10,755 bases of DNA from a bacterium (GCA_965233585.1 CBDDTI010000258.1:1-10755), one strand, 5' to 3'; shown: positions 905-10,755, counted from the stretch's first letter. Notes: a model not told the origin generated them from the sequence alone. Translations and numbers: made by a program.

Positions 905-1146
905 TTTCGCAAAACATAAAGATAATGTTAGATTTTAGGATGAACTGTTCTTGAGCAGAGTTTATTTTGATAGAGATGGATTTGAAGTTGGAGGTCTAGA
1001 CAGGCTCTTTCGAGCTCGATGTAGGCACATTTCTTCTCAAAACGTTCTCAAAACACCTTAAAACAGTCTTAAACGGGCTTTTAACCATCCGTTTACGCAT
1101 AAAAACCATCTTGAAGCGCTCTCAAACCACCTTGATGGCATCTACA

Positions 1147-1392
1147 TTGAGCCTGTTGCAGGCTCAATCGAGCCTGTTTTTGTCTGTAATCGGCCTGCAA
1201 CCGGCTTGTTTTCGTCTGCAAACGGCTTGCAACAGGCTCAATCGAGCCTGTAATCGGCCTGCAACCGGCCTGTTTTCGTCTGCAATCGGCTTGCAACAGG
1301 CTCGATTGAGCCTGTAATCGGCCTGTTGCAAGCCGATTGCAGACGAAAACAGGCCGATTACAGGCTCAATCGAGCTTGTTGCAGGCCAATTG
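1147..1392. repeat. Palindromic array: 64-bp direct repeats built from 10-11 bp subunits, followed by an inverted copy
   Basis: CTGTAATCGGCCTG at 1184, 1248 and 1312 (period 64). The hairpin CAGGCTC-AATC-GAGCCTG recurs. Perfect 36-bp inverted arms at 1266-1301 and 1321-1356. Confidence 0.92.
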
Positions 1393-1460
1393 TAGTCAAA
1401 AACAAAGCTGTATTTCAGTATATTGTTAAACCTTGTTCAGATAACACTTGTTGCAAAATC

Positions 1461-1766
1461 ATGCTTCACAATAAAAATTTGTTTCAAAAAAATCCAAAAG
1501 AAGACGGCATTCTGCAACACATCTCAATTCTTCTCAACTCTATAAACAAAACTTTAAAACTGCTAGAGCAAGAAGTATCACTTTATTGTCAAGACGTCAA
1601 AAATCACACGTTTTTATTTTATGGTCCAAGAGATGATTTTGAAACTCGTGCACAAATCATTCCTGTCATTCAAAAAGAACTAGAAGTGTACCATTATTAC
1701 AAAAAAACTTTGGAACTTTTGTACATAATTTTTGCTCAAAGTTTTTACACTCAGTTTTTTTGTTAA
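1461..1766 (+). CDS. Hypothetical protein, 101 aa (MLHNKNLFQK...YTQFFC), probably helical
   Basis: ATG at 1461 in an AAAATC context inside ORF 1326..1766, whose upstream part is only translated repeat. Amphipathic stretch LQHISILLNSINKTLKLLEQEV. No family recognised. Confidence 0.5.
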   Translation: MLHNKNLFQKNPKEDGILQHISILLNSINKTLKLLEQEVSLYCQDVKNHTFLFYGPRDDFETRAQIIPVIQKELEVYHYYKKTLELLYIIFAQSFYTQFFC

Positions 1767-1955
1767 AACATCAATATTCCAAATAATGTCAATTTTATTA
1801 TGACCCTAATTCCTGTCATTCAAAAAGAACTAGAAGTGTACCACTATTACAAAGAAATAACTTTTGATCTTTTGTACAAAATTTAACTTTACACGCAATG
1901 TTTTTGTTTTAGTCAACAATATTTCACATCAATATTTTAAAATAATGTCAATTTT
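1659..1955. repeat. Diverged ~150-bp tandem duplication
   Basis: TCCTGTCATTCAAAAAGAACTAGAAGTGTACCAyTATTACAAA at 1661 and 1811. Both copies end with ACATCAATATT..AAATAATGTCAATTTT (~1768-1797 and ~1926-1955). Confidence 0.9.
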
Positions 1956-2178
1956 TGACTCATCGTCGGAAAGTGAAGATGAACAAGAAATTACCACACA
2001 CAACAATTTTGTAGAAGAAGATGTTTCGCCTGGTCTAATGAGTTGCTTGTACATTTTATGGATGTTACTTGGTTTATTCGTTTTATTTGAATATCATTAT
2101 CAATTATATTATGTAAATGTCAATAATAATATTAATAATTCATTTTTCCGTCAAAATACAAACGATTTATTAATTTAA
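1945..2178 (+). CDS. Small single-pass membrane protein, 77 aa, with an acidic N-terminus
   Basis: ATG at 1945: MSIFDSSSESEDEQE..., then the hydrophobic segment LMSCLYILWMLLGLFVLF and an Asn-rich tail. Confidence 0.6.
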   Translation: MSIFDSSSESEDEQEITTHNNFVEEDVSPGLMSCLYILWMLLGLFVLFEYHYQLYYVNVNNNINNSFFRQNTNDLLI

Positions 2179-2332
2179 CGTGCAATGTTTTATCTTTTCC
2201 AACGCGTGTCTTTCGTTCCTTTTTCACTCAATTCATGCAACACTGCACAATTCATTGATTTAGCATGCAATGTGCATTGAAGCGCACAATGTTTTATGTG
2301 CAATATATATGCAGTCAAAATTGACTCTTATT

Positions 2333-2339
2333 TATAAAA
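2333..2339 (+). promoter_or_regulatory. Candidate TATA box for the mucin-like gene
   Basis: TATAAAA ~120 bp upstream of ATG 2455. The AT-rich context makes a chance match possible. Confidence 0.3.
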
Positions 2340-2454
2340 AATATGTGTCTGAGCGCGTTTTAGCTGTAATTTTTTATTATACAAATAAAAATCTTGAATT
2401 CTGTAATTAAAAATTCTCACTTTGAACCAAAATCTTCAACAATTAACAACAGTC

Positions 2455-3491
2455 ATGAAATTTTTGACTTTATTTTTTTGTGTCATTTTTTTGACGCAAA
2501 ATTCCTTCGCCCAAAACATCACTTTTTGGAAAAATATTTTAGAAAAGGCTTCTGGATTTTCTGCCCCATTAAAGACCACCAGCTCCACAACCACCACCAG
2601 CTCCACAACCGCCACCAGCTCCACAACCACCACCAGCTCCACAACCACCGCTTCCACTTCTACCGCCGTTGCAATTATTACGTCCACCACCGCTCCGTTA
2701 AAGACCACTACAATTTCTTCAACAACATCAATTTCTACTACCATCGACAGTGTCACCACCACTGTGTCAACCAACAATTTAACAACCACCACAACTTTTG
2801 CAACATCTACTATTAGTCCTGCAACTACCACAATCAGTCCCACAACCGTAATAAACTCCTCTACCGTTCCTGACAAATTCACTTTTGACAGTAAGTTTGA
2901 TTTGTTTTAGTTTTATTTTATTTTCTCTAATAATTATATTACTATTTTGCAGACGGATTCAAATTGGTGGTTTTTGTTATTCTCGTAGTCGTTTGTCTTT
3001 TGGTGATAACCTTGACAATTAAATTTTGGAAATTTAATTCCCAACTGGCTAAACACAATTCTGAAGTAATTTTTTTAAATAAAAAATTTCTGTTTGATAT
3101 TATTATAATTTTTATTTATTTTAGTTTATTGAAATGTCAACTCTTCGTTGCAAAACAAAGAGTCAAAATTCAATACCTTCTTCACAAGCTGATAACAACG
3201 TGTTGCCAGAAACATGCGACAAAAAAATAAACACCGACGAGTCATATTTGTCAAATTTAAGGGTAAGAAATTAATCTTTTATTTTTTCAAAATTAATTAT
3301 AAAATTACTTTATTATTTATTAGAAATATCAATTCCGTCCGTTGTACCGCCCAACACCATCATATCCACGCACTTCGCTTCACAGACAACGGGCAGCATT
3401 TTTCAACGATTCTTTAAATTCCGTCACCACCGCTCAAATGGAATATTCTTCATCCGCCTCTTCTCTTTTTCATCCGCCCACTTCACATTAA
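2455..3491 (+). CDS. Mucin-like type I membrane glycoprotein, 284 aa, 4 exons: join(2455..2890,2953..3065,3125..3262,3324..3491)
   Basis: Signal peptide MKFLTLFFCVIFLTQNSFA; Thr/Ser-rich ectodomain with N-glycosylation sequons (NIT, NLT, NSS); TM segment LVVFVILVVVCLLVITLTI followed by KFWK; Ser/Pro/Tyr cytoplasmic tail. Introns 2891-2952 (GTAAGT..TTTTGCAG), 3066-3124 (GTAATT..TTTTAG) and 3263-3323 (GTAAGA..TATTAG) give an uninterrupted 855-nt frame. AATAAA at 3563. Confidence 0.85.
2575..2646 (+). repeat. Coding minisatellite, 4 x 18 bp (TTSSTT)
   Basis: ACCACCAGCTCCACAACC x4, with one A>G change in copy 3. Confidence 0.95.
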
Positions 3492-3594
3492 ATTTACTTT
3501 ATTTATATTTATTGTATTAGTAAGTAAGATATTTTAGAGTATGCGCATCTCTGTTATTTTGAAATAAACATATGTACATAGTAACCGCCTTGTC

Positions 3595-4803
3595 TCACTG
3601 TGGAATTACGGGTAGTTTTTTCTTAATGCCAAAACACAATTCCATAAATGCCTTTGTTATTTCTTCCAATCCTCTCAATGGCACCTGGATTTTCATAATT
3701 TTTGTTGAATATTGTTGGTTGTTCTCATTGTACTAAAAAAAGATACGGTTTAGAAGTGAACAATTCTTTCACTATCATTTTTACTTACGTGTTCCTTTTT
3801 CATGTAGATTACCGGCCAGGTCGACAATCCTCCTGCTTTTTGTATATGCCTTAAACCAGTTATCCCTACAGTCACTTGAGGATTAAGGTATACCACCTTA
3901 TACATTGGTTTTATTGGAAGGCTAACGCTTTTTTCGTCCACCTTTTTGTTCTTGATTAGTTCAATAAACTTTTTTAGTGTGGCTGGATTTATATACATGT
4001 ACTGAAATAAAAACTTAATCATTTCTGCAATAAAACGAATCAAATTAGAATTTCAAAACTTACGTTGTCCGGTCCAAAAAAGTATGCTTCTCTGGTAGAA
4101 TGTTCCTTTTGCCATTCCACAAAATCAATGTCTCTAGTGTCGGCCATTTTCTCAGTTGTCCAATTTCGAAAAAATACTTTTTGCTCCTCTTCATTCATTA
4201 AAATCTGGTACGTCATCAACGATGCGCCTTCATAAACCGCATGGTTGTTAATTTCATTTTCTAAAACCAGCTTCTTTTTTTTCGGTTTGGTTCTTTTCTT
4301 TCCTAAAATGTCTTGAGTCTGTTCATCAAGGTCTGCGTCCTCACTGACCTCATTGTCGTCATCATCATCATCATCATCATTATTTTCTGAACTTTCATCG
4401 CTCGGTTCTTCTACATCGGTTGAAACATCATCAGAGTCAGAAGTCAACTCTTCCACTTCTGATTCTTCAGTTTCTTCAGACGTAACATCAGTTTCTGACG
4501 ATGACATGTCTTCTTTCTTTTTTTGCTTTTTATCTTAAATAACATACAATATGGTTAATAAGGCCCACGCATATAAAAATTTATAAATTTGAAATTACCG
4601 GTTTTTAATTTATGTTTTTTATTTGAATTCTTCTTGGACTTCTTCTCACTCCCATGTTTTTTCTTATCAGCCTTTTTATCATTCTTTTCCGTCTCCTTTT
4701 TGGTCTTTTTTTTCTTCTCGTCCTGAATGGTCTTATGATTGTCCTCTTCGGCATTTTTTATGCGAGAATTTAATTTTCTCCTCTTTGCTGGTGATTTCTT
4801 CAT
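3595..4803 (-). CDS. Nuclear-type protein, 341 aa, 4 exons: complement(join(3595..3732,3789..4001,4064..4533,4599..4803)); Lys-rich N-terminus, Ser/Asp/Glu tract, globular C-terminus (possibly PC4-like)
   Basis: Minus-strand introns 4598-4534 (GTAATT..TTTAAG), 4063-4002 (GTAAGT..TTTCAG) and 3788-3733 (GTAAGT..TTTTTAG) join ORFs 4555-4803, 4040-4507, 3750-4043 and an unlisted last exon (YNENNQQYSTKIMKIQVPLRGLEEITKAFMELCFGIKKKLPVIPQ*) in frame, 1026 nt in total. The first intron is the least certain (AAG acceptor); the alternative start is ATG 4507. Confidence 0.78.
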
Positions 4804-5232
4804 ATTCTTTTCTTAAATGCGGGTTATTTATTCAAAGCAGAAATCCACACTGGCATCCAATAGAAAAAATTCCGTTCTTTTAAACCTTTTTCAAAGTTTA
4901 TTGCCTGCTACCAACTAGAGCTGGTTAACACCCTAAAACGACCCAACCCCAAGTGTGTGTGGACAAATGGTTGATACAATCATGGAATAAAAATTTTAAA
5001 TAAAGGACCATGCACGTGATTAAGATTTTAAAAAAACTAAAAAATGACAGGAACATAAATTTTCTTTTGTTTTAAGTATTTAACAGAGATAATGCGAAAT
5101 AGTGACCATAAATTTTATTGTCACAAAACTGCTTGACCGGAATATCGGTCAGAATTTTTCTCATGCAGTTATTTCTTTCCTGCAATTAGTCTATATACCG
5201 TTTAAGAAGTGAGCGCTTGCTGCTAAAATTTG

Positions 5233-5269
5233 TATAAAAGTCGGGATATATATTTTCATTCCGTCATTC
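5233..5269 (+). promoter_or_regulatory. Pol II core promoter candidate: TATA box plus initiator-like TCATTC
   Basis: TATAAAAG at 5233-5240, TCATTC at 5256 and 5264 (about 25-33 bp downstream), ATG at 5336. Confidence 0.55.
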
Positions 5270-5335
5270 TATCTTTGTTCAAGAAGTCTTCTACTCAAAC
5301 TACCCCAACTCAATTTTAAGGTAAAATAATAAAAT

Positions 5336-6145
5336 ATGCCTGGTCTTAACAACACCCAATCTCGTCAAGTAGCTCATGACTCGCAAGGGTTAAGGGTTAC
5401 CCTAAATCTTGCCGATGATTCAACATCGGGTCTCAACGTCTCCAATTCTGCTGGTGATTCAACATCAGGCCTTAACTTCATCAATTCTGCCGATGATTCA
5501 ACATCGGGATCTCCAACTGTTGTGCCAATTGGTCGAGGTGAAAGGTTGACAAGACCAATTAACACGGTAAACCCCTCTTCTACCAATCACAGAGTTGGAC
5601 GAGGTGGGAGAGTTCTTCCTTCGTCTCGCCTTGAAGTTGATGATTCAACATCGACATGGTTTGGTCGCAACCCCGCAAATAATTTATTTGTCGGGCGTGG
5701 CGTTGGTCGAGGTCAACCAACCCAATCAAATACCGAGCCATCAACTTCTGCTCCAAGAGTTGGGCGGGAGGTTGGAGGCGGTGCTGGCAGGGGTGGAAGA
5801 TATTTTCATCCTTACCAGCGTCCGGCAAACCAAACTTCTGCCTCCACAACCTCCACAAGAAACGAAACTCGATCGAGTTCCGTTATCATTTTGGACAGCG
5901 AAGGGGAAGAAGTTGAAGAGGAGGAGGAAAGTTTTGCTAGGTCGAATGACGACCACCACCGATCTACTTACATTGCACATTTATTTAATAGAAGAAGATC
6001 CATTTTTAGTGTTAATGAAAGATATTTGGAGTCTTTTATTCAACAGCAAATACGTGTACTTGAGCATGAGAATATTTTTTTACGAGCTGAAGTTCGTCGA
6101 TTAAATATTCAATTATGCCGATTGATGGATTTGTTAATTTCTTAA
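5336..6145 (+). CDS. Largely disordered 269-aa protein with DSTS repeats, GRG/RGG repeats, an acidic tract and a C-terminal leucine-zipper-like coiled coil
   Basis: Intact intronless ORF downstream of a TATA box, followed by AATAAA at 6214. Heptad L-EHENIF-L-RAEVRR-L-NIQLCR-L. RYFHPY resembles a PY-NLS. Confidence 0.82.
   Translation: MPGLNNTQSRQVAHDSQGLRVTLNLADDSTSGLNVSNSAGDSTSGLNFINSADDSTSGSPTVVPIGRGERLTRPINTVNPSSTNHRVGRGGRVLPSSRLEVDDSTSTWFGRNPANNLFVGRGVGRGQPTQSNTEPSTSAPRVGREVGGGAGRGGRYFHPYQRPANQTSASTTSTRNETRSSSVIILDSEGEEVEEEEESFARSNDDHHRSTYIAHLFNRRRSIFSVNERYLESFIQQQIRVLEHENIFLRAEVRRLNIQLCRLMDLLIS
5405..5510 (+). repeat. Coding 39-bp (13-aa) tandem repeat x ~3
   Basis: TGATTCAACATC recurs with period 39 (NLADDSTSGLNVS / NSAGDSTSGLNFI / NSADDSTSG). 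A fourth dispersed copy lies at ~5641. Confidence 0.88.
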
Positions 6146-6243
6146 GTTATTTGAGTTTATTTTGTATATACTTATTGTGTAATGTATTATCAAAATTATT
6201 TTAAATTAATGTAAATAAATTTTGTTTTCAGAATTTGTAAGAC

Positions 6244-6963
6244 ATGCCGAAATCTTACGTTTGTCCTGAATGTCAAAAATCGTTTGTTAGAAAATCTTCT
6301 CGCGACAAACATCATTTATTCCGTCATCGCAAAACTACAAAATCTCAAACTCGGACTCCGCTTAATCAGTCGTTTCAATGCCCATTTTGCGAGAACAAAG
6401 TAAGTTCCTTTAAATCAAGAAAAGATTTAGTCTCTCACATTGATGCTTCTCATTTGGAAAATTTACAATATTTATTACACAAATCAGCACTTAACGGAAA
6501 AATCAAATTTTATCGAAAACACATTTTTTCGAAAGAAACACTTAATGGTTTTGCTGCAAATAAAAAAAATAAACAAGAAATAGTTGACGTTATTCGTCAC
6601 GAATTAAGTAAAACTTTTACGGTTAAAGTCGCCCTTATTTTGACAGCAGCGTATCAAATTCCTGATTTGAATTCCGCTGCAGAGAAAAAAGACATTGAAT
6701 CAGATAATACCGATATTAGTGATATTTCTAAAAAACCTTCTGATCAGTCGTCGCTTGCAATATTGTCCAATGATCGAGATGTCTTTGCTTTAAGAACCAG
6801 CTACATTCAATTCACGTCTTTTGATTCATCTCGCTCGTTAAAAGGCAAGGTCCAAAAATTATTAAATAATTTAGTAAATCGAGAAGAAGATTTGTTGATG
6901 AGAGGTTCCGGATGGAGATTTGAGTCTTTATCTTTTAGTGATATTCAAATTACTAGTTTTTGA
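6244..6963 (+). CDS. Double C2H2 zinc-finger protein ending in the GSGW module typical of the N-terminal region of Polinton-type PolB, 239 aa
   Basis: YVCPECQKSFVRKSSRDKHHLFRH and FQCPFCENKVSSFKSRKDLVSHIDASH. C-terminal EEDLLMRGSGWRFESLSFSDIQI. Confidence 0.85.
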   Translation: MPKSYVCPECQKSFVRKSSRDKHHLFRHRKTTKSQTRTPLNQSFQCPFCENKVSSFKSRKDLVSHIDASHLENLQYLLHKSALNGKIKFYRKHIFSKETLNGFAANKKNKQEIVDVIRHELSKTFTVKVALILTAAYQIPDLNSAAEKKDIESDNTDISDISKKPSDQSSLAILSNDRDVFALRTSYIQFTSFDSSRSLKGKVQKLLNNLVNREEDLLMRGSGWRFESLSFSDIQITSF

Positions 6964-7015
6964 TTTTTATGGACTTATTTTATCTTATTTAAAATATTTA
7001 AAATAAACTTTGGAA

Positions 7016-9875
7016 ATGGATTTTATAGAAATTCCGCATGATTTAAGGAGATCTAATTGCTTGGAATGGAAAACTCGATACGATAAATTTAACTTTCTTT
7101 ATCTGTACATTAGACATCTTTTTCCTGAAGAAACGGTTTCCGTTGTTGATTTTCGTCAAATGCCAATAAGATTTCTTAAAAAGTTTAATGTAAAAGGTTT
7201 CAAGTTTCCTCTTCAATTTTGTAATTTAAAAAAATTTCTAAAAAAAAACTCCCATTTACCAATTTCAATTTCAGTTTTTTATGAGAGTGAGGGTCAAGTT
7301 TCGAAGTTAGGATTTTTTACTAATAAAAACAACGACAGAAACAAAAACATTTTAAATTTGTTAATGATAAAATATGATCCTGAAATCTCTACTGAACATG
7401 AATCTCTATTTTCCCGCCTTCCAAAATTAGCTAAATGCAAGAAAAAATCTTCTCGTAAAAAGATTGACAATTCTAGTTCTAATGTTAAATTGGGTTTTTC
7501 TTCCAAGTTTAAAAAGATTAAAGATTTAAATCAACAGCACCATTTTTTTAAAATCACTAAAATTCAAGGTTTTTTAAATAATCGGGCTAGACTGGTGTCG
7601 GACAAAAAAGCGGTTCAACAGAAGCACATCTATTGTGAAAAATGTCTGCTACGATTCCGATCAAAATTTAAGAAGGAAAAACATGAACAAACTTGCTACG
7701 ATAAACAACGTGCTGTCTACCCACCCAAAAATTTCTCCATAAGTTTTACCAATCACAGACATAAATTTCAAGCTCCTGTTGTAGGATTTTGTGATTTTGA
7801 AAGTGTGCTTCAAAGAAACAAAGAACGATCTAAGTGTCGATTTTGTTCAAAAACTGAGTGTCTGTGTGCTTTTCCCACCAGTGACGATATAAACGTGCAT
7901 AGACCGGTGGGCTATAGCTTGCTTTTTGTGGACTCCGACGATGAAGTATTTTTTCAAGAAGAATATTTAGGAGAAGATGCGGTTAAACATTTTTTGAATC
8001 GGTTGACTTTTTATGAAAAGGTTGTTGAAGAAAGAAAACAAAAATTTAGACATGTTGTTAAAAGTCAATCTAGTCCGCAAGAATGGCAAATGTATCGAGA
8101 AGCGAAGGTTTGTCATATTTGTGGCGGCCAGTTTAAAAATGAGTCTAGAAATTACAGAAAAGTTTTAGATCATGATCACGTGTCAGGCAAAATAATGGGT
8201 GCGGCTCATTCGTTGTGTAACTTGACAAGATCCGGTCCATACCGCACACCAATTTTTTTCCACAACGCTCAAGGGTAAGAAATTTTTGATTGAGTTTAGT
8301 TATCAAAATAATACAAATTATGCATGCGTTTCAGATATGATTTGCATCTTATTGTGAAAGAATTGAATCTTTCTCAATTTAAGTATAATCCAGAAGTTTT
8401 GGCAAAAAATAGTGAAAAGTTTCGCACTCTTACATTAGGCAAATTTAAAATTCAAGATTCATTAGAGCACATTTCTGCCAGTCTGGATGCTCTTGTTAAA
8501 GATTTAAATCAGACCTCAAATTTTTCCTTTCCCATCTTACAACAAATGGAAAGATTTAAAAAAATTCCTGCTCGTCAAAAATCAAAAGCTTTGAAACTTT
8601 TAAAAAGAAAAGGTGTCTTTTGTTATGAACATTTCCAATCCCTACAAGAGATGAAGAAAAGCCGAAACCTTCCGTCCAAAGACTCTTTTTATTCGGAATT
8701 AAACGAAGAACACATTACGGAAGCGGATTATTCCCATGCTCAAGAGGTCTTCAAATCATTTAAATGCAAAAATGTGGCGGATTACATGATGCTCTATTGT
8801 TCTTTAGACGTTGTTTTGTTGTGTGAAGCATTTCTTCAATACAGAAAAATGGTGATGGAGCATTTTCAATTGGATCCTGTTTATTATCTAGGTAAGTTTT
8901 ATTCTTTAATGTCAAATGTATTGTAATACTAAATTTATTTAACCTTAATTAGGAATTCCTGGATTGAGTTTTGACGTCATGCTCATGTTCTTTGAAAATT
9001 CAGAACAAGCTAAATCAGATAATAAGCTCACAACCAAATCCGAAACTTCCAAACCTCTTGGATCATTAGATGTCTATTCTGATCCTGAAATGGAGCGTTT
9101 TTTCACAAAGGGTATTAGAGGTGGGCAAAGTTTTATCGCCCAGCGTTATGCCAAAGGGAATAGCAATCCTGGAAAAAGCGGCGATCACTTGTTATACATT
9201 GATGGTAATTTTAAACTGTATTATTTAATAAAATTATTTTGTTTTAACTCAACAAATTTTTTTAGCCAATAACTTATACGGAAGTATGGAAACTTTAAAG
9301 TTACCAGTTTCTGATTTTAAATGGGTTCCAAAAAGTGAATTTAAAAGATGGACAGCTAAAGATATCATCAATATTCCTGCGCAAGACGATACAGGTTATG
9401 CGTTTGAAGTTGATTTGCATTATCCATCTCATCTTCATCAGGTAAATCTAATCTTTGGTGCAGCACGTTATTTATTAATTCCGGCAACTTATACACTATT
9501 ATTTTCAGGCACACGATCAATTTCCGCTGGCTCCGTATACAGACACGGTTTCTTTTAAACATCTATCTCCTTACAATCGCCGTTTACTGAAACAACACTG
9601 TCCTCGAGATTATAGGAACAAAAGATATCAAAGCAAGAAATTGTTGAGCACTTTTTATGACCGAAAGAAGTACGTGGTGCATCTGGAAAACCTGCAGTAC
9701 TACCTAAAAAAGGGCATGAAGCTGCTAAAGATAAGAAAAGTCATGAAGTTTCGACAAAAAGCTTTTTTAAAAGAATTCATCGAGAAGGTCACAAAGCTGC
9801 GATCGAATGCCCGCAACGACTTTGAACTAAGGCTTTTTAAACTTTTTGCCAACTCTACTTTTGGAAAGTTTATTG
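7016..9875 (+). CDS. polB: Protein-primed family B DNA polymerase (DNA_pol_B_2, Polinton/Maverick/adintovirus type), 3'-partial: join(7016..8274,8335..8891,8953..9204,9266..9441,9509..9875), 870 codons
   Basis: Exo I GFCDFES; endonuclease-VII-like CHICGG...DHDHVSGKIMGAAHSLCNL; Exo II HNAQG/YDLHLI; RKGVFCYE; Exo III LYCSLDVVLL; YYLG/IPGLSFD; motif A YID/ANNLYG; LHQ/AHDQFPLAP; motif B KLFANSTFGKF. Each slash marks a splice junction that rebuilds the motif. Motif C is absent from the window. Confidence 0.93.
8275..8334 (+). other. polB intron (60 bp, phase 2)
   Basis: GG/GTAAGA ... GTTTCAG/A. Removal gives HNAQGYDLHLIVKEL. Confidence 0.93.
8892..8952 (+). other. polB intron (61 bp, phase 1)
   Basis: G/GTAAGT ... 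TAATTAG/GA. Removal gives DPVYYLGIPGLSFDVML. Confidence 0.92.
9205..9265 (+). other. polB intron (61 bp, phase 1) inside catalytic motif A
   Basis: G/GTAATT ... TTTTTTTAG/CC. Removal gives LLYIDANNLYGSM. Confidence 0.94.
9442..9508 (+). other. polB intron (67 bp, phase 0)
   Basis: CAG/GTAAAT ... TTTTCAG/GCA. Removal gives YPSHLHQAHDQFPLAP, in frame with ORF 9641..9892. Confidence 0.92.
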
Positions 9876-9970
9876 GTAAGTTTCCAAAATAAGATGATTT
9901 ATCCGCGTAAAAAGAATAAGTACTATCATTAAGGGGTCATTTTTTATTTAGAGATCGTTTTTATTCTTAT

Positions 9971-10483
9971 TTACACATCGGGGACAAGTGCGTGGTGGTA
10001 CCTTTGACAGTTGCGACAGTAGGTCCGGACGGAGCTCACCACGCACTTGGCCGCATCGTACTTGTGCTCGTCTTGAGCACGGTTGGAGATGCGGTTGGGT
10101 TGTGGAGATGCGGTGTTGTTGGGGGGGACGTGGCCTGAACTTCTGCTAAAAGCAGCGGTGACCGTCCTCGCCAGCCCGACCACCGCATCGGCAAATCGAC
10201 TGATGAGGCTCCTCCTCGGCAACGTTGGCGGCGCGGTTGGTGGCAGCATCGTCGATGCCATCGACCGGTTTGTCTGTCGGGGATCCGGAGACGGTGGCGG
10301 AGCTGGCGGGATCGGAAGACGGCGGCGCCGCCTCCGGATCTTTGCAAAGTTGTTCGATGCTGGTGCTTCCTCCTCCTCCTCCATCCTGTCCCGCTCCTCC
10401 TCCATCCTGTCCAGCAAAAACACCCCGTCCTGCTCCTCCCTCCTGAACACCCCAATAATCATTCTCGTCCTCGTCCTCTTCAT
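9971..10483 (-). CDS. Hypothetical 170-aa protein: acidic tract, RRRRRR, Pro-rich linker, amphipathic helix and C-terminal CxxC/His cluster; start codon uncertain
   Basis: The stop coincides with the sharp GC-to-AT boundary at ~9971. Two minus-strand AATAAA signals follow (TTTATT at 9960 and 9943). C-terminus KCVVSSVRTYCRNCQRYHH. The competing overlapping frame 10146..10544 cannot be excluded. Confidence 0.55.
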   Translation of the reverse strand: MKRTRTRMIIGVFRREEQDGVFLLDRMEEERDRMEEEEEAPASNNFAKIRRRRRRLPIPPAPPPSPDPRQTNRSMASTMLPPTAPPTLPRRSLISRFADAVVGLARTVTAAFSRSSGHVPPNNTASPQPNRISNRAQDEHKYDAAKCVVSSVRTYCRNCQRYHHALVPDV

Positions 10484-10755
10484 CGTCCTTTTTCTCCTCC
10501 TTCTCCACCTTCCTTCCTTTAATTTGTTTTGAATTTTCCCACATGGGGTTGGTTGGGAAGTTATTAGAAATTAATCACCAAATCTCAACACAATTAATGG
10601 CAAATTATCTCATAAATATCAATAAATTAAATGAATATTAAATTGTAGAATTTGTGATATTGGTTTTATTATGTCATTTTTTTAAAGGAACAAATTTATT
10701 TGTTAATTTTTTTGGTCACTTTACGGGCTGTGGACGGGGACCACAACGACGGAAA

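Follow-up and report, generated by a model that had tools for sequence, protein, structure and literature searches.

Contig C258 of a genome assembly filed as bacterial (GCA_965233585.1, CBDDTI010000258.1:1-10755), analysed here over its whole length of 10,755 bp and called the window below, is very probably the left, polymerase-bearing arm of one 23-24 kb copy of a Maverick/Polinton of the polintovirus/adintovirus type. The copy would belong to a recently amplified population of several families in the nuclear genome of a small-intron eukaryote, probably marine, and its contig was mis-binned with a bacterial genome. The Maverick/Polinton is an already known kind of element, and the window is a variant of it with unusual features: as read from the sequence, these are conserved spliceosomal introns, antisense genes nested in the polymerase gene polB, a zinc-finger module split from polB, and a pair of genes for TBP-like and TFIIB-like proteins. 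A first-pass annotation of the window had recognised a virus-like element with host-type spliceosomal introns and had taken the window for its replication arm, both of which hold. Its further proposals, that this is an undescribed kind of virus and that accessory genes replace the usual core, had to be given up, because sister copies carry the core genes in their other half and these, with a second terminal inverted repeat (TIR), define a Maverick/Polinton.

The assembly comprises 12.0 Mb in 747 contigs of 33-48% G+C. The window itself is not bacterial, because it contains GT..AG introns and is a member of a repeat family. Searches with the core genes found at least one element gene on 63 contigs, which together make up 1.69 Mb of the 12.0 Mb, and part of this bin, which is held as a prokaryotic species genome, is contamination by eukaryotic DNA. 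An invertebrate host is plausible from the relatives of polB, most of which, among those with a known phylum, belong to Arthropoda. Scanning the window against Rfam and for tRNAs gave no matches, and a Pfam scan of all open reading frames (ORFs) in the window gave only weak zinc-finger and Endonuclease_7 matches.

Copies and whole-element structure

Positions 1809-10755 of the window are 97.9% identical, over 8973 bp, to positions 31854-22905 of contig C224 in the same assembly. Eleven other stretches are about 84-86% identical across 5007/5197-9901 and a further 11 are about 81% identical across 7487-9881; more distant copies are present too, and each core gene has 40-57 matches in the assembly. 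At least 20 more diverged copies run on into the half that is missing from the window, and the gene order is the same in every mapped copy. The left half of the element consists of a TIR, ORF-A, a small transmembrane protein, a mucin-like membrane protein, gene C (on the minus strand), an RGG protein, a zinc-finger ORF and polB, the last with four short introns and an intron of about 2 kb that holds the antisense genes N2 and N1. The right half continues with a putative packaging ATPase, p130, a C2H2 protein, a putative protease and the capsid protein (both on the minus strand), the TBP-like and TFIIB-like proteins, p138, an integrase with rve and chromo domains, p579 and the second TIR. The core genes are missing from the window because the contig ends inside the long polB intron. 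It had been remarked that polB has no integrase, ATPase, protease or capsid gene beside it, which is correct inside the window, but sister copies carry the full core just past the place where the contig ends.

On C224 an inverted repeat (9572-10050 and 32534-32130) encloses 23 kb. Three copies are complete, with lengths of 22,959, 23,963 and 23,873 bp, in the range of 15-25 kb (sometimes more) that is usual for Mavericks/Polintons, and their TIR pairs align over 479-603 bp at 80-96% identity. The ends of other copies extend about 23 bp beyond the TIR of the window before their flanks diverge. Within the window TIR, the internal repeat (1078-1436) has a summed contig depth of 6946 in run X1, as against roughly 60-1000 for the bins between 1796 and 10052; depth is not copy number, and the excess hints at many solo or miniature derivatives. 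The truncated TIR adjoins a G-rich tandem repeat of about 210 bp at positions 61-906, with units 92% alike, and the same satellite also lies beside a TIR on contig C30. A THAP-domain ORF and a 780-amino-acid (aa) ORF (4487-5158 and 7275-9614), the latter present three times in the assembly, flank the C224 copy, and both are probably parts of other mobile elements of the same host.

Core genes in the sister copies

The first-pass annotation had proposed a search of the flanks for core genes, and in the sister copies this finds a candidate ATPase, a candidate adenain-like protease, a double jelly-roll capsid protein and an rve integrase. The integrase gene at 13434-14519 of C224 matches rve at 1.6e-9 (38.3 bits, cut-off 32.6) and Chromo at 2.4e-6, and has 47 matches on 40 contigs. 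The 457-aa ORF at 16288-17658 of C224 is, on the evidence of its structural model, the double jelly-roll major capsid protein: the AlphaFold2 model, made with 12 paralogues from the assembly, has a predicted local distance difference test (pLDDT) score of 71.9 and a predicted TM-score (pTM) of 0.75, and Foldseek matches it best to the capsid proteins of PBCV-1, SGIV, Sputnik and mavirus (E 1e-15 to 1e-12, TM-score 0.5-0.6). Scanning IMG/VR with the capsid profile gave 87 pattern matches, none of which was confirmed. The window family has one capsid gene; distant families have two tandem capsid paralogues, about 53% and 40% identical to the query (C213 13474-16243, and contigs C98, C58, C93 and C593).

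The ATPase ORF has a P-loop and adjoins polB in every mapped copy, and the protease gene adjoins the capsid gene both here and in the metagenome contigs L031 and L034. Other ORFs of C224 after the last polB exon encode a 130-aa protein, a C2H2 protein, a 138-aa protein and a 579-aa protein; p579, p138 and p130, which are candidates for the penton, have no Pfam match. The Pfam scan, which covered the 14 ORFs of the element with 100 aa or more, detected no RNA polymerase gene. The element ORFs likewise include no large-virus transcription and replication core (RNA polymerase, primase-helicase), and the TIRs bound 23-24 kb, as against the criterion of more than 100 kb for Nucleocytoviricota.

The polymerase gene

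The assignment of polB (coordinates of this and all other window features are in Table 1) comes from its relatives and motifs. It has 2323 relatives at E<=1e-3; among 18 full-length ones C2H2 was found in 10, PF03175 in 8 (best 8.1e-24) and Endonuclease_7 in 7, and the profile of the relatives matches the phi29 polymerase at 2e-6. The names of ten relatives that were looked up gave no information. The polB of the window has an Endonuclease VII-like zinc insert between the Exo I and Exo II motifs (Endonuclease_7 Pfam match 2.6e-5). The nearest Atlas clusters are eukaryotic, with Arthropoda prevailing among members of known phylum, and contain Endonuclease_7 in 11-39% of members; in one of them 13% carry DNA_pol_B_2. 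The gene is under purifying selection, with a ratio of nonsynonymous to synonymous substitution rates (dN/dS) of 0.13-0.14 against the lineage of copies about 84% identical to the window (the 84% lineage).

In relatives, the zinc-finger ORF of the window is the N-terminal module of full-length polB, whereas here it is separate, with a conserved stop 52 nt before the polB ATG. The stop and a nearby ATG are kept in all families examined, and the gap is about 2-18 nt in the equivalents from distant families (C593, C58 and C106). The spacing between ORF-A and the small transmembrane gene is about as tight as that between the zinc-finger ORF and polB.

The polB exon stops at 9875, after motif B, and is followed at 9876 by a GTAAGT donor. 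On C224 the next polB exon, which carries the DTDS motif, begins about 2.0 kb downstream, behind a TTTCAG acceptor near 21757, and across this gap residues 1025 and 1026 of the relative P0014 are contiguous. The long intron contains sequence of 55-65% G+C, in two blocks in six copies and in one block in a second, more distant family (family 2), while the element is otherwise about 33% G+C. These blocks correspond to the antisense genes N2 and N1, and family 2 has an N2-like gene only. Both the 84% lineage and family 2 retain the C-terminal motif of N2, the middle part of which is unalignable between lineages. N1 has 398 aa in the 84% lineage and is not a single-frame ORF in C224, but its start and its C-terminal end are conserved between both. 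A homopolymer at 10707-10713 of the window differs in length by one base from C224 (L002 2947-2954), which alters the last residues of N1; the C224 length is common to many contigs of the sequencing runs.

Introns

Introns were enumerated as GT..AG intervals that restore the reading frame, and each was tested on a MAFFT alignment of the window with seven copies, namely C224 (98.5% identity) and six of the 84-85% lineage. The latter six amount to about one independent comparison, because they are 96-99% identical to each other. The ten introns of 56-67 bp that had been annotated in three genes were recovered exactly, each with GT..AG in all eight aligned copies. Their lengths shift by 1-5 bp between lineages, by non-multiples of three, and identity to copy C212a is 79% in introns as against 91% in exons (pooled introns of polB and gene C, including two rejected candidates). 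Spliced frames of polB and gene C are free of internal stops in the seven other copies, with differences concentrated at third codon positions. In the contigs of four sequencing runs no joint fell on a predicted intron, a result that is neutral with regard to splicing.

Intronless polB relatives of 1200-1300 aa are contiguous across each of the polB junctions, and most junction positions recur in families with 35-75% protein identity. Some losses were seen: contig C58 is without the intron at residue 838, and metagenome contig L031 is without those at residues 653 and 838. Two candidates were rejected. In other lineages a polB intron at 6956-7028 would have GC or AT as its donor, and the stop and nearby ATG are conserved; for a gene C intron at 3551-3609 the 84% lineage lacks a donor and retains the equivalent stop.

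Of the other signals in the first-pass annotation, TATA boxes did not survive a comparison with shuffled sequence, since the motif shows no enrichment (it has 15 matches where 11.6 are expected, and 44 of 200 shuffled sequences have at least as many). The AATAAA signals are enriched as described (62 against 26.6 expected), but shuffles of the whole window are a poor control for an AT-rich stretch.

Accessory genes of the left arm

The annotated arrangement of eight genes on both strands between 1461 and 10483 is correct, and the accessory genes are real and conserved in the lineage, with a constant linkage to polB. In family 2 (for example C106; DNA about 75-80% identical, and in parts only) the accessory genes and their order are the same, with an ORF-A homologue, a small transmembrane protein, a protein with a signal peptide, a Ser/Thr-rich region and a transmembrane segment, gene C, and an RGG/zipper protein.

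Table 1. Features of the window (C258, 10,755 bp); a dot marks a feature without strand
Feature	Position	Strand	Description
Left TIR, core part	1001..1405	.	Internal 32/64-bp tandem repeats; many copies in both orientations; inverted relative to the far end of complete copies
ORF-A	1461..1766	+	101 aa; ATG and frame kept in the 84% lineage and family 2; no Pfam match
Small transmembrane protein	1945..2178	+	77 aa; acidic N-terminus; hydrophobic segment at residues 28-51
Mucin-like type I membrane protein	2455..3491	+	284 aa; exons 2455-2890, 2953-3065, 3125-3262, 3324-3491; introns 62, 59, 61 bp
Gene C	3595..4803	-	341 aa; basic, then acidic, then conserved C-terminal domain; exons 4803-4599, 4533-4064, 4001-3789, 3732-3595; introns 65, 62, 56 bp
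RGG-rich protein	5336..6145	+	269 aa; single exon; C-terminal heptad (zipper-like) region
C2H2 zinc-finger ORF	6244..6963	+	239 aa; weak C2H2/Di19 Pfam matches; aligns to residues 2-196 of the 1248-aa relative P0024
polB	7016..9875	+	Short introns 60, 61, 61, 67 bp; last exon beyond the window; colinear with intronless relatives
Long polB intron, first ~880 bp	9876..10755	+	~2.0 kb in the 98% identical copy; GC-rich hypervariable sequence
N2	9971..10483	-	170 aa; Arg/Pro-rich; conserved Cys/His-rich C-terminus; nested in polB intron; no Pfam match
N1 (end only)	10696..10755	-	Last 19 codons and stop; repeat-rich, Gly/Ser/Trp-rich; nested in polB intron

Gene C is, like polB, under purifying selection (dN/dS 0.10-0.12 against the 84% lineage), and its C-terminal domain occurs on 35 contigs. 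It is divergent with polB: at 27 of 30 loci it lies no more than 4 kb from the N-terminal part of polB and faces it, and contig ends cut the remaining three. Ordinary host flanks, with accessory genes unlinked to polB, had been named as the finding that would overturn a virus-like reading, and the linkage at these 27 loci is the opposite of it. Gene C has no Pfam match, no Atlas match and no longer relatives; the 29 relatives that databases contain are unnamed, exon-sized proteins which derive from metagenome assemblies.

The membrane proteins and the RGG protein are fast-evolving, with dN/dS of 0.35-0.55 and indels that preserve the frame. For the small transmembrane gene dN/dS is 0.33-0.47 against the 84% lineage, with no stops and a positional homologue in family 2; just upstream of it (1945) the window has a local duplication of about 150 bp. 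The mucin-like protein has a hydrophobic N-terminal leader, 36% Ser+Thr and a transmembrane segment near residues 141-175. Its four-exon model is open to the same C-terminus in seven of eight copies, one copy being frameshifted in the repeat; lineages differ by about 120 residues in the mucin domain, and dN/dS in exon 1 is about 0.55. The predicted cytoplasmic tail (3324-3491) contains a Tyr-Pro-x3-Leu motif; the 84% lineage also has it, together with a duplication of the segment around it. We take this motif to resemble the ALIX-binding late-domain motif of retroviruses, although it is short and could be due to chance. The RGG gene is open in all eight copies, its indels keep the frame, dN/dS is about 0.5, and its positional homologue in family 2 has the same features. 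Differences between ORF-A and C212a fall 10/6/14 at codon positions 1/2/3 (over 1440-1710).

TBP-like and TFIIB-like pair

Outside the window, at 14932-16306 of C224 (L001; also L016-L028), two adjacent genes between those for the capsid and the integrase encode a TBP-like and a TFIIB-like protein, and the pair is present in all families of the assembly. The TBP-like protein matches PF00352 at 3.2e-18 (65.8 bits, cut-off 22.9) over residues 92-179 and TBPs of the PDB at 1.8e-16 to 1e-12, the match falling on two stretches of the chain; at the level of sequence it has the TBP repeat fold. The TFIIB-like protein matches the PF08271 zinc ribbon at 2.5e-8 (33.8 bits, cut-off 29) and human TFIIB at 5.2e-6. 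Its AlphaFold2 model (pLDDT 67.9) gives Foldseek matches with E 8.6e-8 to 2.8e-4 and TM-scores of about 0.4, and the top listed matches down to rank 33 are chains of Pol II or Pol III initiation complexes or of TBP-TFIIB/TFB complexes (TFIIB, TFB, Brf), with cyclins below. From these matches and the model, the protein is predicted to have an N-terminal zinc ribbon and two cyclin-like repeats.

Diverged families keep both genes of the pair intact and next to each other, with identities of 27-31% and 35-41%, the latter for the TBP-like protein. The TFIIB-like profile finds 88 relatives in public metagenome assemblies, none named, and a scan of metagenome contigs (JGI and others) found 56 loci, from which we examined the 11 whose match covers most of the query. 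On seven of these (L029-L034, L060) a TBP-like gene lies immediately upstream of the TFIIB-like gene, with the pair at 19-42% identity, and the same contigs carry homologues of the capsid, protease, integrase, p579, ATPase or polB in various combinations at 19-45% identity. The other four, of 38-68% G+C, have the TFIIB-like match only and are probably cellular. Among Mavericks, Polintons and adintoviruses, no description of a TFIIB was found in the literature searched, supplements lying outside the search; a legend to one figure does label a 'TBP' gene in a related virus (Figure 5 of PMC8502044).

We tentatively propose, giving it rather less than an even chance, that these elements form a widespread undescribed Maverick clade (at least four families here and seven unrelated public metagenome contigs) with a TBP-like and TFIIB-like pair of its own, that the pair would form a private pre-initiation complex which draws host RNA polymerase II (or III) to the promoters of the element, and that the left-arm genes would depend on host splicing. 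The pair would have to work with a host polymerase, because there is no RNA polymerase gene among the element ORFs that were scanned.

Proposed life cycle and alternative explanations

From what is known of the family, host RNA polymerase II would transcribe the element in the nucleus, and the resulting mRNAs would be spliced; its own DNA polymerase would start from the TIR ends with protein primers and so copy the linear DNA, the integrase would insert the element, and the capsid, ATPase and protease genes would allow virions to form. More speculatively, the TBP-like and TFIIB-like pair may steer the host polymerase to element promoters, gene C, which lies head-to-head with polB, may be a nuclear replication accessory protein, and the two membrane proteins may act at the surface of the cell or of the particle.

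Several observations weigh against a Maverick/Polinton copy inserted in a nuclear genome. Taken alone, the polB pieces of the window give no PF03175 match. The ATPase of C224 matches Pox_A32 at 5.1e-4, with 20 bits against a cut-off of 22.8, and ATPase_2 and FtsK_SpoIIIE also below cut-off, and the protease matches Peptidase_C5 at 5.2e-3, with 16.9 bits against 21.3. The outermost 23 bp or so of the window TIR are absent and the TIR abuts the satellite directly, either through truncation or through an assembly join. The splicing of the introns is predicted, from conserved GT..AG and open frames. A target-site duplication (TSD), which has 5-6 bp in Mavericks/Polintons and which the first-pass annotation had suggested looking for together with long TIRs, was seen at none of the three complete copies, all of which have the TIRs (no identical 4-8 bp flanks at offsets 0-6); this test is weak, because flanks are often other copies and the contigs are metagenomic. 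Finally, the copies all come from a metagenome bin, in which repeats can be mis-joined, and abutting or truncating copies could be chimeric. That the C224 copy is such a chimera is unlikely, because the same order is found on at least six contigs and in metagenome contigs from elsewhere.

The absence of TSDs would also fit free, episomal genomes of an adintovirus-like virus, as would the intact genes under purifying selection and the 96-99% identity among copies of the 84% lineage. We consider this explanation unlikely, since all 19 copy ends displayed run into differing flanks and not into contig ends, truncated and abutting copies are found on C224 and C288, one copy has the frameshifted mucin gene, and the assembly has at least four diverged families side by side; this family is, however, one in which integrated and free forms can coexist. 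Much less probable again is a nuclear DNA virus or large element of a new kind, without the Maverick core: the 10.7 kb of the window do hold no integrase, ATPase, protease or capsid gene, but the window stops in a polB intron, directly after which the 98% identical copy and all other mapped copies have the full core. We give equally little credence to a cluster of host genes around a domesticated polB, or to a pure artefact of assembly or contamination. The contig does come from a bacterial bin, and its join to the satellite at 1001 may be artificial, but the sequence is multi-copy, bounded by TIRs and fixed in gene order, gene C is linked to polB at all 27 testable loci, and no named host orthologue occurs among the 29 relatives of gene C and the 88 of the TFIIB-like protein.

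Comparison with known elements and viruses

With animal Mavericks/Polintons (polintoviruses, or the adintoviruses of Starrett et al. 2021, PMC8502044), the element shares a protein-primed polB, an rve integrase with a chromodomain, a double jelly-roll capsid, a candidate A32/FtsK-like ATPase, a candidate adenain-like protease, TIRs, a length of 23-24 kb and many copies per genome. It differs from them in its ten short introns in three left-arm genes and its polB intron of about 2 kb with one or two nested antisense genes, and also in its separate zinc-finger ORF, its adjacent TBP-like and TFIIB-like genes and the lack of a visible TSD. Introns in some Polinton genes were reportedly noted by Kapitonov and Jurka in 2006. 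Krupovic et al. 2014 (PMC4028283) make no mention of introns, and in PMC6431247 the word occurs only in the title of a reference.

Adenoviruses would share with this element a number of features that are well established for them: nuclear linear double-stranded DNA, a protein-primed polB, the adenain protease (of which the element has a candidate) and spliced transcripts made by host Pol II. They have no integrase and larger genomes than this element, and we know of no adenovirus with a TBP or TFIIB of its own. Virophages such as mavirus and polinton-like viruses share the capsid fold (mavirus, Sputnik), and some have polB and an rve integrase. They depend on the cytoplasmic factories of giant viruses. 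The introns that PMC12220804 reports for polinton-like viruses are group I introns. A virus-encoded pair of TBP-like and TFIIB-like factors is shared with large DNA viruses, for example poxvirus VITF-3 (PMC12917281) and TFIIB of Nucleocytoviricota (bioRxiv 10.1101/2022.05.25.493380). Such viruses, however, have a multisubunit RNA polymerase of their own, and none was detected among the 14 scanned ORFs of this element.

Significance

The result is mainly corrective: the apparent novel virus that lacked core genes is one half of a Maverick/Polinton. It also shows that about 1.7 Mb of eukaryotic elements lie inside an assembly catalogued as a prokaryotic species genome. As a specimen, the window is of value for a Maverick lineage with conserved host-type introns in the genes of its replication arm and with a polB that harbours nested antisense genes. 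If the TBP-like and TFIIB-like pair is functional, this would be a small DNA virus that integrates and supplies its own factors for promoter recognition, though not a polymerase, and control of expression in Mavericks would become directly testable.

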